Positions 34,402-43,506 of a stretch of 64,000 nucleotides of DNA are shown here, piece by piece (the first letter of the stretch is position 1; the number at the start of each line of letters is the position of its first letter). Source of the stretch: Escherichia coli (lineage in GTDB: Bacteria; Pseudomonadota; Gammaproteobacteria; Enterobacterales; Enterobacteriaceae); the NCBI RefSeq assembly GCF_003790525.1, contig NZ_CP033635.1, one strand, 5' to 3'. A program made the position numbers and the translations under genes. The notes beneath the pieces are model-generated. The model was not told where the DNA came from and searched no databases. It was given only the letters and a program-made list of their open reading frames with translations.

Positions 34402-34635
34402 ATGAGTGAATATATGAAGAATGAAATACTGGAATTTCTGAACAGGCATGATGGAGGGAAAACGGCAGAAATTGCGGAGGCGCTGGCGGTAACGGATTAC
34501 CAGGCCCGCTATTACCTGTTATTACTGGAAAAAGCAGGTATGGTTCAGCGCTCACCATTAAGACGGGGCATGGCAACATACTGGCTTCTGAAAGGAGAGA
34601 AGCAGGCGGGGCAGAGTTGTTCACTTTGCAAACTC
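34402..34635 (+). pseudogene. papI: papI regulator, 3'-truncated/fused at resistance-module junction
   Basis: [61 protein letters not shown]... then frame continues into high-GC foreign DNA from about 34625. Confidence 0.75.
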
Positions 34636-35270
34636 TGCCGACCAGTGGTGATCCGTTCGGTGACGGGATTGGCAAGGTAGCCGGGTCCAGCCTGCACGCC
34701 GGCGTGGCGGCCAGGGCCGATGAACGCAAGAAGCTCGAACGGCTGTGCCGGTACATCAGCCGCCCGGCGGTATCCGAGAAGCGGCTGTCGTTAACACGAG
34801 GCGGCAACGTGCGCTACCAGCTCAAGACGCCGTACCGGGACGGCACCACGCACGTCATTTTCGAACCATTGGATTTCATTGCAAGGCTGGCCGCCCTGGT
34901 ACCGAAGCCCAGAGTCAACCTAACCCGCTTCCACGGGGTGTTCGCACCCAACAGTCGGCACCGGGCGTTGGTCACGCCGGCAAAACGGGGCAGGGGCAAC
35001 AAGGTCAGGGTGGCTGATGAACCGGCAACACCAGCACAACGGCGAGCGTCGATGACATGGGCGCAACGGCTCAAGCGTGTTTTCAATATCGACATCGAGA
35101 CCTGCAGCGGCTGCGGCGGCGCCATGAAAGTCATCGCCTGCATTGAAGACCCTATAGTGATCAAGCAGATCCTTGATCACCTGAAGCACAAAGCCGAAAC
35201 CAGCGGGACCAGGGCGTTACCCGAAAGCCGGGCGCCACCGGCTGAGCTGCTCCTGGGTCTGTTTGACTGA
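34625..35270 (+). pseudogene. IS91-family (ISCR2/ISVsa3-like) rolling-circle transposase, 3' fragment
   Basis: ...NLTRFHGVFAPNSRHRALV...IETCSGCGGAMKVIACIEDPIVIKQILDHL typical of IS91-family C-terminus; high GC. Confidence 0.65.
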
Positions 35271-35300
35271 CGAGCCTGAAGGCCAACGATACCAATCAAA

Positions 35301-36185
35301 ATGCTGCGTTCACAGCGCCGCGGCAGGGATCCGCCGTGCTGGTTGTCGGAAAAGGAGCCGCTAGTGGGAAAGAGGAGGGTAAATTTTCAGCGTTGCTGGC
35401 TCCCCGTCAGCCGGATTGGGTTGCATCGCAGGGGTGTCGAAAGAGTCAACTGCGGTCCAAAGCTGTTGGACTTGGGTGAAAAGGGCGTTTATTCTTCCTA
35501 TACGTGCCGCGTTCCAGGCGGCGACTATGAGGGCTATGTCGATGCCCATGTGCGCCGGCTGGAGGCGCTACGCCGGGCCGGTATCGTCGAGCGGATCGAC
35601 GCCGACCAATGGCGCATCCCCAATGATCTGGTCAGCCGTGCCGCCGCCCATGACGCCGGCCGAGACAGTCAGGCCAGCGTTCGCGTCCTTTCCCCGGTCG
35701 ATCTGAACAAACAGATCGGATCGGACGGCGCGACCTGGCTGGACCGGCGGCTGATCCACGGCGAGACGGCCGACCTTGCGCCAACCGGCTTCGGGCAACA
35801 AGTCCGCGAAGCCATGGACCAGCGCCGCGAGCACCATATCGAACAGGGCGACGCCACCCGCAGCCGGGACAGCCGCGTCTTCTACCGGCGCAACCTTCTC
35901 GCCATCCTGCGGGAGCGCGAGGTAGCCGGCGTCGGATCGGATATGGCTTTGAGTAAGGGCCTGCCGTTCCGCGCCGCCACGGACGGCGAGAGCGTCAGCG
36001 GCAAGTTTACCGGAACCGTGCATCTATCGAGCGGCAAGTTCGCCGTGGTCGAGAAATCCCATGAGTTCACCCTTGTCCCGTGGCGGCCGATCATCGACCG
36101 CCAACTCGGCCGCGAGGTTATGGGCATCGTGCAGGGCGGGTCGGTGTCGTGGCAGTTAGGGCGGCAGAGGGGGCTGGAACGCTGA
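35301..36185 (+). CDS. hypothetical protein commonly found upstream of floR (virD2-like/DUF3363-type)
   Basis: 294-aa ORF in the conserved position upstream of floR; assignment from context. Confidence 0.45.
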   Translation: MLRSQRRGRDPPCWLSEKEPLVGKRRVNFQRCWLPVSRIGLHRRGVERVNCGPKLLDLGEKGVYSSYTCRVPGGDYEGYVDAHVRRLEALRRAGIVERIDADQWRIPNDLVSRAAAHDAGRDSQASVRVLSPVDLNKQIGSDGATWLDRRLIHGETADLAPTGFGQQVREAMDQRREHHIEQGDATRSRDSRVFYRRNLLAILREREVAGVGSDMALSKGLPFRAATDGESVSGKFTGTVHLSSGKFAVVEKSHEFTLVPWRPIIDRQLGREVMGIVQGGSVSWQLGRQRGLER

Positions 36186-36401
36186 GTGCGCCCATGCCGC
36201 ATTGCGAAGCAAAAGATAATCGGATAAAATGTAGCAATTCATATTCGTAAGCGTGGAGTAATCAGATGGGAAATTCCAAGTCAGCAGACAAGTAAGCCGC
36301 AACAACCAGTATTGTTGTTGCGGCGCTCTGTAAGGCTAGTCTCATCTGATTGCTGACGAGCAGACGTCGCCCGGTATTCCTTAATCGAGGGTTGATTCGT
36401 C

Positions 36402-41587: not shown

Positions 41588-42390
41588 CAACCCCAAGTCA
41601 GAGGGTCCAATCGCAGATAGAAGGCAAGGCGTTCGCGGTCGGGGGCTTCGATCCCCAATACATTGAATAGGACAGCGAAGGCGCGCTCTGCTTCATCTGG
41701 CGCTGCCCAGTTCTCTTCGGCGTTAGCAATCATGAGTGCCAAATCGGCATAGCGATCTGCTGTTCCGAGCCGCCCAAGGTCGATCAGACCCGTGCATTGA
41801 AGAGTTTTAGGGTCCACCATGAAGTTCGGCATGCAGGGATCACCATGGCAAACAACCATATCGGTGCGCTCTTGGTCGAGCCGCACCGGTAGCTCTCGTT
41901 CGACACGAGCCAAAAGATCGAGCTGCGGCGTACTCTTGTCCTCGTCCGGTAAGAAGTCGGGATTGACGGCATTGCGGGACACCACATCAACGGCGCGTCC
42001 GAACATTCGCGACAGCCTGCGCTCAAACGGACATTGATCAACCGATAGGCTGTGAACAGCGCCAAGTTGCTGCCCCATTGACGGCCACGCTTTGAGCAAA
42101 TCCGCTCCAGACAGATCAGCCGCCGGTACTCCCGGAATTGCCGTTATCACCAAGCATGCACCCTCCTGTTCCTCCTGCCAGTTGATGACCTCGGGGCAAG
42201 CCACACCTCGACCTTTGAGCCAAATGAGGCGGTCACGCTCTCCAGCGAGCTCACCGCGGCGGGAAGCAGGTGCGATTTTCGCGAAGGCATGCCCGTCACC
42301 ACGTCGAAAAACAAAATCACCAGATTCTCCGCCTCTGACAGGCAACCAGTCAGAATGCGATTCACCAAAAAAAATATTAGTTCGATTCAA
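41587..42390 (-). CDS. strA: aminoglycoside 3''-phosphotransferase APH(3'')-Ib
   Basis: MNRTNIFFGESHSDWLPVRGGESGDFVFRRGDGHAFAKIAPASRRGELAGERDRLIWLKG... Confidence 0.95.
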   Translation of the reverse strand: MNRTNIFFGESHSDWLPVRGGESGDFVFRRGDGHAFAKIAPASRRGELAGERDRLIWLKGRGVACPEVINWQEEQEGACLVITAIPGVPAADLSGADLLKAWPSMGQQLGAVHSLSVDQCPFERRLSRMFGRAVDVVSRNAVNPDFLPDEDKSTPQLDLLARVERELPVRLDQERTDMVVCHGDPCMPNFMVDPKTLQCTGLIDLGRLGTADRYADLALMIANAEENWAAPDEAERAFAVLFNVLGIEAPDRERLAFYLRLDPLTWG

Positions 42391-42450
42391 TGGAGGTTCC
42401 TTCAGTTTTCTGATGAAGCGCGAATATAGAGAAATATCCCGAATGTGCAG

Positions 42451-43266
42451 TTAACGAATTCTTGCGGTTTCTTTCAGCGCCGCCAATACCGCCAGCCCGT
42501 CGCGCAAGGGGCGCGGCTCGTGTGTGCGGATGAAGTCAGCTCCACCTGCGGCGGCGGCAAGCTCTGCAGCGAGTGTCGCGGCCCCGACATCCCCCGGACC
42601 ACGGCCTGTGAGCGCGCGCAGAAAGGATTTGCGCGAAACAGACAGAAGCACCGGCAAATCGAAGCGCAGCCGCAATTCATCGAACCGCGCCAGCACCGAG
42701 AGCGAGGTTTCGGGAGCAGCCCCCAGAAAAAACCCCATGCCGGGATCAAGGACAAGGCGGTTGCGTTTGATACCGGCTCCCGTCAGCGCCGCGATGCGCG
42801 CGTCAAAGAACGCCGCAATGTGATCCATGATGTCGCCAGCGGGTGCCTCGCGCCGATCTGCCTGCCCGTCTTGCACCGAATGCATAACGACGAGTTTGGC
42901 AGATGATTTCGCCAATTGCGGATAGAACGCAGCGTCTGGAAAACCGCGAATATCATTGAGATAGGCCACACCACGCGACAAGGCATAGGCTTGCGTCGCG
43001 GGTTGATAACTGTCGAGCGAGACGGGAATGCCATCTGCCTTGAGCGCGTCCAGCACCGGCGCGATACGCGCGATTTCTGTGTCGGACGAAACAGGCGCGG
43101 CGTCGGGATTGCTGGATGCCGGACCGAGGTCGATCACATCTGCCCCCTCGGCCATCAGCTTACGCGCCTGCGCAATGGCTGCGTCTGGCGCCAGATACCG
43201 GCCTCCATCGGAGAAACTGTCCGAGGTTATGTTGACGATGCCGAAAATGATGAGCGATTTATTCAT
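42451..43266 (-). CDS. sul2: sulfonamide-resistant dihydropteroate synthase
   Basis: MNKSLIIFGIVNITSDSFSDGGRYLAPDAAIAQARKLMAEGADVIDLGPASSNPDAAPV... Confidence 0.95.
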   Translation of the reverse strand: MNKSLIIFGIVNITSDSFSDGGRYLAPDAAIAQARKLMAEGADVIDLGPASSNPDAAPVSSDTEIARIAPVLDALKADGIPVSLDSYQPATQAYALSRGVAYLNDIRGFPDAAFYPQLAKSSAKLVVMHSVQDGQADRREAPAGDIMDHIAAFFDARIAALTGAGIKRNRLVLDPGMGFFLGAAPETSLSVLARFDELRLRFDLPVLLSVSRKSFLRALTGRGPGDVGAATLAAELAAAAGGADFIRTHEPRPLRDGLAVLAALKETARIR

Positions 43267-43506
43267 GGGGGCTTCTATAATAATAATAATCGAGCATGAG
43301 TCTCATACGGATGCTCGGGTCGAAAGGGAATCCCCAGGCGAGTAACCTGTTTGCGGTGATCCATTAGCTGCAGGAGCAGAATAGCATACATCTGGAAGCA
43401 AAGCCAGGAAAGCGGCCTATGGAGCTGTGCGGCAGCGCTCAGTAGGCAATTTTTCAAAATATTGTTAAGCCTTTTCTGAGCATGGTATTTTTCATGGTAT
43501 TACCAA

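Follow-up and report, generated by a model that had tools for sequence, protein, structure and literature searches.

A truncated CR2-sul2 resistance unit in a pheV island of Escherichia coli, with junctions that suggest integrase-mediated entry followed by deletion

The closest described relative of the resistance block considered here is the CR2-sul2 unit of the ARI-B region of IncC plasmids, which has the configuration ISCR2-floR-dISCR2-tet(A)/tetR(A)-strB-strA-sul2 (Zhang et al., 2022, PMC9376610). In such a unit the sul2 end carries attR with the att core GAGTGGGA, 304 bp upstream of sul2, a complete rcr2 stands at the other end with attLR 112-130 bp upstream of it, and the resistance cargo lies between rcr2 and sul2. 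Integration of the unit is dependent on Int and independent of rcr2, as deletion of rcr2 had no effect and deletion of int abolished movement; cointegration of the whole plasmid via attR was dominant, and secondary sites were reduced to TGGG/GGGA (PMC9376610). Two chromosomal relatives have also been reported. In E. coli Sanji (ST167), an '8.9-kb cluster' was described within a 69.2-kb chromosomal island that holds a raf operon, relE/parE and yeeU/yeeV toxin-antitoxin pairs and sul2-strAB-tetRA-floR (Zeng et al., 2019, PMC6392093). A 22,977-bp dfrA35 fragment (PF9285/MF2156; Wuthrich et al., 2019, PMC6506621) carries the cargo sul2-dglm-dfrA35-ISCR2-floR and a Tn21-like element.

The stretch analysed here, called the window, comprises 64,000 nucleotides of the E. 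coli contig NZ_CP033635.1 (RefSeq assembly GCF_003790525.1). It contains a high-GC block of 8.95 kb, limited by positions 34618/34623 and 43568, with a GC content of 0.54-0.68 over 34500-43499 vs 0.32-0.45 in the immediate flanks (Table 1). Its left neighbour is a nearly complete papI and its right neighbour the beginning of a YadA-like adhesin gene. The block supplies six intact resistance and regulatory genes, which provide for efflux of phenicols and of tetracycline, the latter with its repressor, for phosphorylation of streptomycin and for a dihydropteroate synthase that is insensitive to sulfonamide. All six matched their NCBIfam profiles at full length and with bit scores above the curated cut-offs. 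A preliminary description made from the letters alone had already recognised this gene content, the high GC and the foreign origin of the module, all of which hold, with none of the resistance genes inactivated; the block itself also stands, and only the ends given for it (34625-43500) had to be moved. In our reading, the block is probably a 5'-truncated derivative of the known, GIsul2-derived CR2-sul2 unit, residing in the pheV island after integrase entry and a later deletion.

Table 1. Features of the resistance block and its flanks (window positions; bits are given against the curated NCBIfam cut-off)
Feature	Position	Strand	Remarks
papA' remnant (partial P-fimbria major subunit gene)	33189..33458	-	RefSeq annotation of NZ_CP019280
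papB-family regulator gene	33665..33979	-	intact, 104 aa; WP_000930062.1
papI'	34402..34622	+	74/77 codons kept; aligned with intact papI of PU-1
Left junction patch	34603..34622		20 nt (21 nt in ISCR2), near-identical between papI 3' end and ISCR2 interior
3' part of ISCR2 (ISVsa3)	34623..35505	+	codons ~293 to stop at 35270, plus 235 nt non-coding 3' DNA
floR segment	35506..37942	+	relaxase (virD2/rlxS-like) remnant, floR, truncated LysR gene (ORF 37644-37949)
floR	36402-37616	+	FloR positions 1-404/404; 899 bits vs 700
5' fragment of second ISCR2	37943..38249	+	terIS (GGAGTGACGGGCACTGGC) and ~first 63 codons; without left half of attLR
tet(A)	38216-39415	-	full length; 891 vs 840; WP_032153701.1
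tetR(A)	39521-40171	+	full length; TetR(A), 304 vs 265
Transposase fragment between tet and str segments	40203..40445	-	80 aa; RefSeq WP_000844627.1 'transposase'
strB = aph(6)-Id	40751-41587	-	full length; APH(6)-I family, 386 vs 325
strA = aph(3'')-Ib	41587-42390	-	full length; APH(3'')-Ib, 638 vs 600
sul2	42451-43266	-	full length; Sul2, 615 vs 575
Right end of block: attR arm and core of GIsul2/CR2-sul2 unit	43547..43568		GTCTTGTTTACAATAGAGTGGG; 302 nt upstream of sul2
YadA-like trimeric autotransporter gene, 5' part	43569..44073	-	codons 1-169; compared with intact 513-aa protein of DG342-2

Comparison with plasmids by BLAST, a check that had been proposed for the module, returned copies 99.9-100% identical over 34603-43572, the match starting at 34603, and at least 425 plasmid records covered at least 80% of the query. 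The same gene order occurs in the IncC plasmid p846 and the IncY plasmid pfosA3, in both of which a full ISCR2 and resG stand before it. The likeness to the CR2-sul2 unit is thus close: genes, order and orientation are equal at 99.9-100% nucleotide identity, the sul2-side terminus lies at the attR core ~304 bp upstream of sul2, an internal ISCR2 5' fragment starts from terIS, and the cargo between the ISCR2 gene and sul2 consists of floR, tet(A)/tetR(A) and strB-strA. Unlike the unit, the window copy is chromosomal, has its attR joined to a secondary site other than guaA, and lacks attLR (present in plasmid copy L002), the first ~292 ISCR2 codons and the upstream resG, so that the ISCR2 gene is broken at 34622/34623 instead of being complete. 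The 80-aa transposase fragment had no NCBIfam match, and before strB-strA, at ~40646-40726, lies what we take to be a Tn5393 terminal repeat.

From Sanji no sequence difference was found, the module and both flanks being 100% identical over 11.1 kb, and the published account of its island, as far as the passages on the cluster go, fits the RefSeq annotation of the identical chromosome around the window. Those passages of PMC6392093 give no junction analysis, name no tRNA-Phe site and do not mention pap; judged by its sequence context, the 69.2-kb island is placed at tRNA-Phe (pheV). The dfrA35 fragment likewise has a truncated ISCR2 as its other boundary and the same island neighbourhood to the right. 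It differs in cargo and in its ISCR2 breakpoint, which lies another 468 nt upstream and abuts an hsdS gene where the window has papI.

At the right boundary, the window shares its sequence with the IncC and IncY copies as far as 43568, where all three end in ...ATAGAGTGGG; in the window this is 302 nt from the sul2 start. Beyond this point the three contexts are unrelated. By this comparison the right boundary is recognisable as the attR of the GIsul2 CR2-sul2 unit, which terminates alike in the IncC and IncY plasmids. The only other GAGTGGG in the block (40195, minus strand) was considered as an internal att site and rejected because it is without att arms. Outside the block, the ORF at 43507-44073 (minus strand) shares 98% identity with the first 169 residues of the 513-aa YadA-like protein of DG342-2; it reads on into attR DNA, where it stops at 43507, gives only a weak Pfam YadA_head match (E = 0.21) and, with 169/513 codons remaining, lacks the C-terminal membrane anchor of a full-length adhesin. 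An att-like target in the adhesin gene, in register with the crossover, agrees with attR at 11/16 and with attLR at 12/16 positions. No higher value occurs on either strand of 30.4 kb, in which 11 and 3 of 60,772 positions, respectively, score as high, and the match within the core is GGG only (CGGCGGGT vs GAGTGGGA).

At the left boundary, the papI frame continues into ISCR2 DNA up to a stop at 34680, which creates a 92-aa fusion ORF, and the crossover falls within a shared TGTTC (34618-34622). It lies in the short patch of near-identity between papI and ISCR2. When an 800-bp papI region was aligned locally with the 1.66-kb ISCR2 unit, this patch scored highest (18/21 identical, one gap). Patch scores as high were obtained in 21 of 300 shuffles (7%), and the argument for a deletion therefore rests on the coincidence of the crossover with the patch and not on the rarity of the patch. 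Read in this way, the left end is a deletion scar inside the ISCR2 transposase gene.

Both flanking genes have lost DNA: papI is without its 3' end and the adhesin gene without 344 codons, and the event is thus better called a replacement of DNA. The block had been described as inserted into the pap locus between papI and an adhesin gene; the truncated genes on both sides are real, but the adhesin is YadA-like and does not belong to pap. Pap-type homology begins at ~33146-33183 and comprises only a partial papA (located through the 100% identical chromosome NZ_CP019280; window = locus + 21499), papB and papI', which do not amount to a functional pap operon. The genes papH, papC, papD, papJ, papK, papE, papF and papG, with the usher, chaperone and adhesin genes among them, are absent beside papI/papB, whereas the operon is full in strain PU-1, where the WP_000930062.1 protein adjoins it. 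With only these three genes left, the suggested link of resistance to a virulence-associated locus is weak. PU-1 has an intact papI with no YadA-like gene downstream and DG342-2 an intact YadA-like gene with no pap operon within ~50 kb; the uninterrupted papI-to-YadA-like arrangement was found in neither.

Taken together, the junctions suggest integrase-mediated entry at an att-like site and a subsequent deletion, rather than ISCR2 rolling-circle transposition, and this two-step arrival history is likely. In the first step, the attR/attP of a plasmid or an excised circle with the unit would recombine with the att-like TTTATAATCCGGCGGG inside the YadA-like gene, catalysed by a GIsul2-family tyrosine integrase supplied in trans. 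In the second, a deletion with its endpoints in the patch of near-identity would bring the papI 3' end up against internal sequence of the ISCR2 gene, removing attLR, the first ~292 ISCR2 codons, the remaining adhesin gene and any DNA in between. The two steps may have occurred in either order, and the present cargo may have come with the first event or been exchanged later by homologous recombination, as the data fit either. Against this proposal count the 7% of shuffles, the restriction of the core match to GGG, and two negative results: no GIsul2-type integrase gene lies in the window, the action of the integrase being read from the sequence only, and the predicted primary product (the 3' part of the YadA-like gene joined to attLR-ISCR2) occurs in none of the complete E. 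coli genomes. Beside attR in the IncY plasmid, only ~29 codons of an integrase-like start remain.

Among the alternatives, the one that survives best is a single step of homology-facilitated illegitimate recombination, in which a chromosome with the sul2-YadA' junction (PF9285-type) took up floR-tet(A)-strAB-sul2 plasmid DNA, with a homologous exchange in sul2/attR and an illegitimate one at the papI/ISCR2 patch, whereby the older cargo was exchanged and recipient DNA lost. PF9285 shares the base-identical attR-YadA' junction, combined with a different cargo and with an ISCR2 that is broken elsewhere, keeps 1147 nt and continues into hsdS', so that two cargoes stand behind the same right junction; between the two, sul2 and the DNA upstream of it differ by only 1 SNP and one indel, the short GC-rich near-homology at the left junction is typical of such events, and the patchy flank divergence between the two backgrounds indicates recombination. 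Yet a prior event is still needed to create the attR-YadA' junction, which makes this an elaboration of integrase entry and no replacement for it, and PF9285 cannot be the ancestor because its papI is already lost. We regard the single step as unlikely, if worth keeping in view. We also considered the right junction, which two island backgrounds share, as proof of independent integrations and rejected it: differences in the flank occur in patches, the first 1.09 kb having a single SNP, and one event followed by recombination fits as well.

Rolling-circle (one-ended) transposition by ISCR2 was the vehicle favoured in the preliminary description for bringing the whole block to the pap region; in this case the ISCR2 copies would have decayed later. 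The two IS91-family fragments on which that view was built are confirmed by the NCBIfam ISCR clade Ia profile (509 positions), ORF 34617-35270 matching positions 293-508 and ORF 38061-38285 positions 19-71, and they are identical in sequence to ISCR2, including an oriIS-type end at 35505 (...GCGTTTATTCTTCCTATACGT, set by comparing two ISCR2 contexts) and the terIS at 37943 as quoted in PMC9376610, from which the identity to intact ISCR2 runs for 307 nt. The floR segment sits between the two copies, as in the classical capture model. Capture by ISCR2 is the usual explanation for this segment, and the left crossover contains GTTC, the tetranucleotide target used by IS91-family elements. However, both fragments are truncated, the block holds no intact HUH-type transposase, and oriIS and terIS are internal to it; the outer boundaries, at which ISCR2 ends would be sought, are a site inside the ISCR2 gene and attR, and no ISCR2 sequence lies near the attR end. 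The cargo is also on the wrong side of the left copy: it lies next to oriIS (3'), whereas the DNA mobilised by rolling-circle read-through is that on the terIS side (5') of the ISCR2 gene. The different ISCR2 breakpoint in PF9285 is expected of deletions and not of a defined end, and movement of the unit responded to loss of int and not of rcr2 (PMC9376610). We therefore hold rolling-circle entry to be very improbable. ISCR2 probably helped in the earlier assembly of the floR part on other replicons and did not make the present boundaries. The block is no composite (IS-flanked) transposon either, as it lacks the defining set of flanking IS copies and target-site duplication; no direct or inverted repeats flank it, and its outer flanks read ...GTTGTTC (left) and TTTCCGG... 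(right).

An assembly error at the boundaries, by which a plasmid contig was wrongly joined to the chromosome, might be suspected in a module far commoner on plasmids whose ISCR2 and sul2 repeats confuse assemblers, but it is next to impossible given that both junctions recur without a base difference in 187-230 complete genomes, obtained by many laboratories from many hosts and countries, and that PacBio data underlie the published description of the locus (PMC6392093). The left junction is present in 187/5426 and the right junction in 230/5426 complete E. coli genomes, and many E. coli chromosomes carry the block and both its flanks at 100% identity. About 59 further genomes cover at least 80% of the right flank but do not have the junction. 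The module thus occurs at this place in ~4% of complete genomes, with people, livestock, pets, wildlife and water as sources. Strain CS6L, whose annotation differs, was tried as an intermediate and rejected, having the same structure.

With no intact transposase, no integrase and a single att half-site left, no self-mobility is expected, and the block is predicted to be now an immobile passenger of the island; it would spread vertically and together with the island, and not move by itself. Module, island and site are all published and the module is an ordinary, known one, so the value of the observation is for surveillance and not as new biology, its sole increment being the base-level reading of the two junctions. 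The chromosomal fixation of a four-class module of plasmid type means that resistance persists without plasmid cost or loss. A more speculative view, which we consider doubtful, is that TTTATAATCCGGCGGG in the YadA-like gene of pheV-type islands may be a functional secondary att site for GIsul2-family integrases, at which CR2-sul2 units with different cargo (those of the window and of the dfrA35 fragment) would have entered at the same nucleotide more than once. If this were true, the island would be a place in the chromosome where resistance modules from plasmids repeatedly end up.

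The resistance module is real and intact, and it was correctly observed in the preliminary description, whose list of resistance genes and whose coordinates for two IS91-family fragments both agree with profile searches: six resistance and regulatory genes matched NCBIfam models at full length, each over the curated cut-off, and two ORFs gave partial matches to the ISCR clade Ia transposase. In the composition profile, G+C is 0.54–0.68 across ~34500–43500 versus 0.32–0.45 in the flanks. Just upstream of the sul2 start codon (43276 region), an ATA/ATAATAATAATAAT run has one length in the window and another in PF9285, a strain with a related dfrA35 element.

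Genes and ISCR2 fragments of the resistance block (window positions)
Feature	Position	Strand	Match
ISCR2 3' fragment ORF	34617-35270		ISCR clade Ia (IS91-family) transposase profile positions 293-508/509
floR	36402-37616	+	NCBIfam, full length
ISCR2 5' fragment ORF	38061-38285		ISCR clade Ia transposase profile positions 19-71/509
tet(A)	38216-39415	-	NCBIfam, full length
tetR(A)	39521-40171	+	NCBIfam, full length
strB / aph(6)-Id	40751-41587	-	NCBIfam, full length
strA / aph(3'')-Ib	41587-42390	-	NCBIfam, full length
sul2	42451-43266	-	NCBIfam, full length

Megablast against plasmids recovered window 34603–43572 at 99.9–100% identity, with at least 425 plasmid records reaching ≥80% query coverage. 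The gene order is identical in the IncC plasmid p846 and the IncY plasmid pfosA3, where a resolvase gene and a complete ISCR2 (ISVsa3) come before the block; in p846 the block adjoins the backbone genes parA/korB, a setting known as the ARI-B island of IncC plasmids. Together with both flanks (11.1 kb), the block is also 100% identical in many chromosomes among complete E. coli genomes, whose hosts include humans, pigs, poultry, cattle, dogs, giant panda, fish, gulls and kites, with river water among the samples.

Comparison of two ISCR2 contexts placed the oriIS-side end of this element at 35505 (...GCGTTTATTCTTCCTATACGT), and the second fragment comprises terIS (37943) and 307 nt in total before the tet(A) segment takes over. 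The floR segment therefore sits between oriIS and terIS, which is the arrangement of the classical model of ISCR2 capture. This assembly is common to the window block and the plasmid copies; it is older than the arrival in this chromosome, and ISCR2 may have assembled the floR part earlier. Because ISCR2 ends at 35505, a CDS annotated as ‘DUF3363 domain-containing protein’ (35301–35505 region), whose annotated start lies upstream of that position, begins within ISCR2 3' non-coding DNA; relaxase homology starts at ~residue 77, and since only the part from there onward is relaxase-derived, the annotated start is probably spurious. The ISCR2 fragments had also been proposed as the vehicle of this insertion, which the boundaries do not support, the left one lying inside the ISCR2 gene and the right one being attR.

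At the right boundary, the window, IncC and IncY copies have identical sequence as far as ...CTTGTTTACAATAGAGTGGG (window 43568), directly past which they are unrelated; because all three diverge immediately beyond this position, it represents a discrete element terminus. The three att sites of GIsul2 have the core GAGTGGGA in common, and attR lies ~304 bp upstream of sul2 and attLR 112–130 bp upstream of rcr2 (Zhang et al., 2022, PMC9376610). The GIsul2 integrase excises and integrates a ‘CR2-sul2 unit’ that extends from attLR to attR and has various resistance genes inside; movement of the unit is abolished by int deletion and unaffected by rcr2 deletion, the dominant outcome is whole-plasmid cointegration through attR, and a secondary att site may consist of no more than TGGG or GGGA (PMC9376610). 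The right end in the window coincides with attR, 302 nt from the sul2 start, and the second ISCR2 fragment keeps only the terIS half of attLR. The target in the uninterrupted adhesin gene, GACACATTTATAATCCGGCGGG|TTTCC, resembles att, matching arm and core in register with the crossover at 11/16 (attR) and 12/16 (attLR) positions. These values are the maxima over both strands of the 30.4-kb locus of DG342-2, an isolate with the intact gene, and are reached at 11 and 3 of 60,772 positions. Since the match of the target is the locus maximum, the comparison speaks for recombination by an integrase at a secondary att site, and the donor would have supplied, in trans, the GIsul2-family integrase that made the right junction. 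In pfosA3 (L002, 12996–13085), attR is directly followed by the N-terminal ~29 codons of an integrase-like gene (MLTDTKLRNLKPRDKLYKVNDREGLYV); beyond these lie a terminal-repeat-like sequence of Tn21 type and a gene of the IS110 family. Such an arrangement would be consistent with a GIsul2 junction of attP type (sul2 end beside int end), later disrupted.

At the left boundary, intact papI reads ...CAGGCGGGGCAGAGTTGTTC|TTCCACAACTTAA, intact ISCR2 reads ...CAGGCGGGGCGAAAGGTGTTC|ACTTTGC, and the window reads ...CAGGCGGGGCAGAGTTGTTC ACTTTGC. The crossover falls within TGTTC common to both (34618–34622), at the end of a patch with 18/21 positions identical. Of all local alignments of an 800-bp papI region with the 1.66-kb ISCR2 unit, this one scores best, and a score as high arose in 21/300 shuffles, such a patch being not rare in itself. 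It is the coincidence of crossover and patch, and not the rarity of the patch, that points to homology-facilitated illegitimate recombination, i.e. a deletion scar within the transposase gene, and the left junction would have been made by such a later deletion.

The papI gene is retained from 34402 through residue 74/77, as aligned with the intact gene of strain PU-1. In the RefSeq annotation of 13P484A, a strain with a 100%-identical chromosome, the left flank holds papA in partial form, followed by an intact gene of the papB family and the ISCR2 pseudogene, and the right flank a ‘hypothetical protein’. The right-hand ORF matches residues 1–169 of a 513-aa ‘YadA-like family protein’ of DG342-2 at 98% identity, with a weak YadA_head match when Pfam is used alone; the earlier reading of an adhesin fragment was thus right as to kind, but the gene encodes a trimeric autotransporter and does not belong to pap. 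Because both flanking genes converge on the block and lack their 3' parts, the block replaced DNA and is not a simple insertion. As papA', papB and papI' are all that remain, the pap locus is a remnant, no longer a working virulence determinant.

The papI–papB intergenic region (34067–34208) has GATC at 34085–34088 and 34187–34190, 102 bp apart and both within an imperfect inverted repeat of 45 nt. The classical Dam/Lrp phase-variation switch of pap is arranged in this way; here the arrangement persists beside intact papB and a C-terminally altered PapI, without fimbrial structural genes. Just upstream of papI (34293–34328), a 9-nt unit, CAAACACAG, occurs three times in tandem. A perfect 23-nt inverted repeat at 33133–33182 (CTGATGAATCCCCTAATGATTTT and its complement, spacer 4 nt), corresponding to two IS10 outside ends back to back, sits exactly where dGTPase-segment homology stops and papA' homology starts, and probably marks the event truncating papA; ~46-nt matches to it are dispersed across many E. 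coli chromosomes and plasmids. To the left of what remains of pap is a defence-like cluster (16094–32744). Its restriction-modification system is of type I, with hsdS, hsdM and an R subunit of the DEAD/DEAH helicase type; the cluster further includes an AAA ATPase, a MazG-like gene, an XRE regulator, a thymidylate-synthase-like gene with an adjoining hypothetical gene, and a dGTP triphosphohydrolase-family gene, which reaches 284 bits against a cut-off of 400 on the anti-phage dGTPase model.

Wuthrich et al. (2019, PMC6506621) described a chromosomal fragment of 22,977 bp from PF9285 and a second strain, MF2156. PF9285 shares its truncated adhesin protein accession with 13P484A, and its attR|YadA' junction is base-identical to that of the window, whereas it carries other cargo (sul2-dglm-dfrA35-ISCR2-floR and a Tn21-like element) and retains 1147 nt of ISCR2, joined to hsdS', versus 883 nt in the window. 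Neither structure can be derived from the other; the common source must have been a form with a longer ISCR2, followed by independent left-hand deletions, which fits the junction counts among complete E. coli genomes (right 230, left 187). The two island backgrounds show ~2% overall divergence, patchily distributed, with 1 SNP in the first 1.09 kb, and a single event at the right junction followed by recombination is a simpler reading than repeated origin. Between the window-type and PF9285/DG342-2-type islands, divergence is confined to patches at 44658–45049 and from 47050 rightwards, separated by long identical stretches, and this confinement indicates mosaic recombination within the island.

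The 13P484A island starts next to yqgA at tRNA-Phe and has a tyrosine recombinase gene ~3 kb to the left of where the window starts; the right end of the island lies beyond two toxin-antitoxin pairs; no tRNA gene was found within the window. The finding is already known, since Zeng et al. (2019, PMC6392093) describe the same locus in strain Sanji, with an 8.9-kb cluster (sul2, strAB, tetRA, floR) in a 69.2-kb insertion that also holds rafRABDY and the relE/parE and yeeV/yeeU pairs. The insertion is present in six non-ST167 strains, which are also among the matches found here. The module is ordinary and already published, and the block would now be immobile, travelling with the island.
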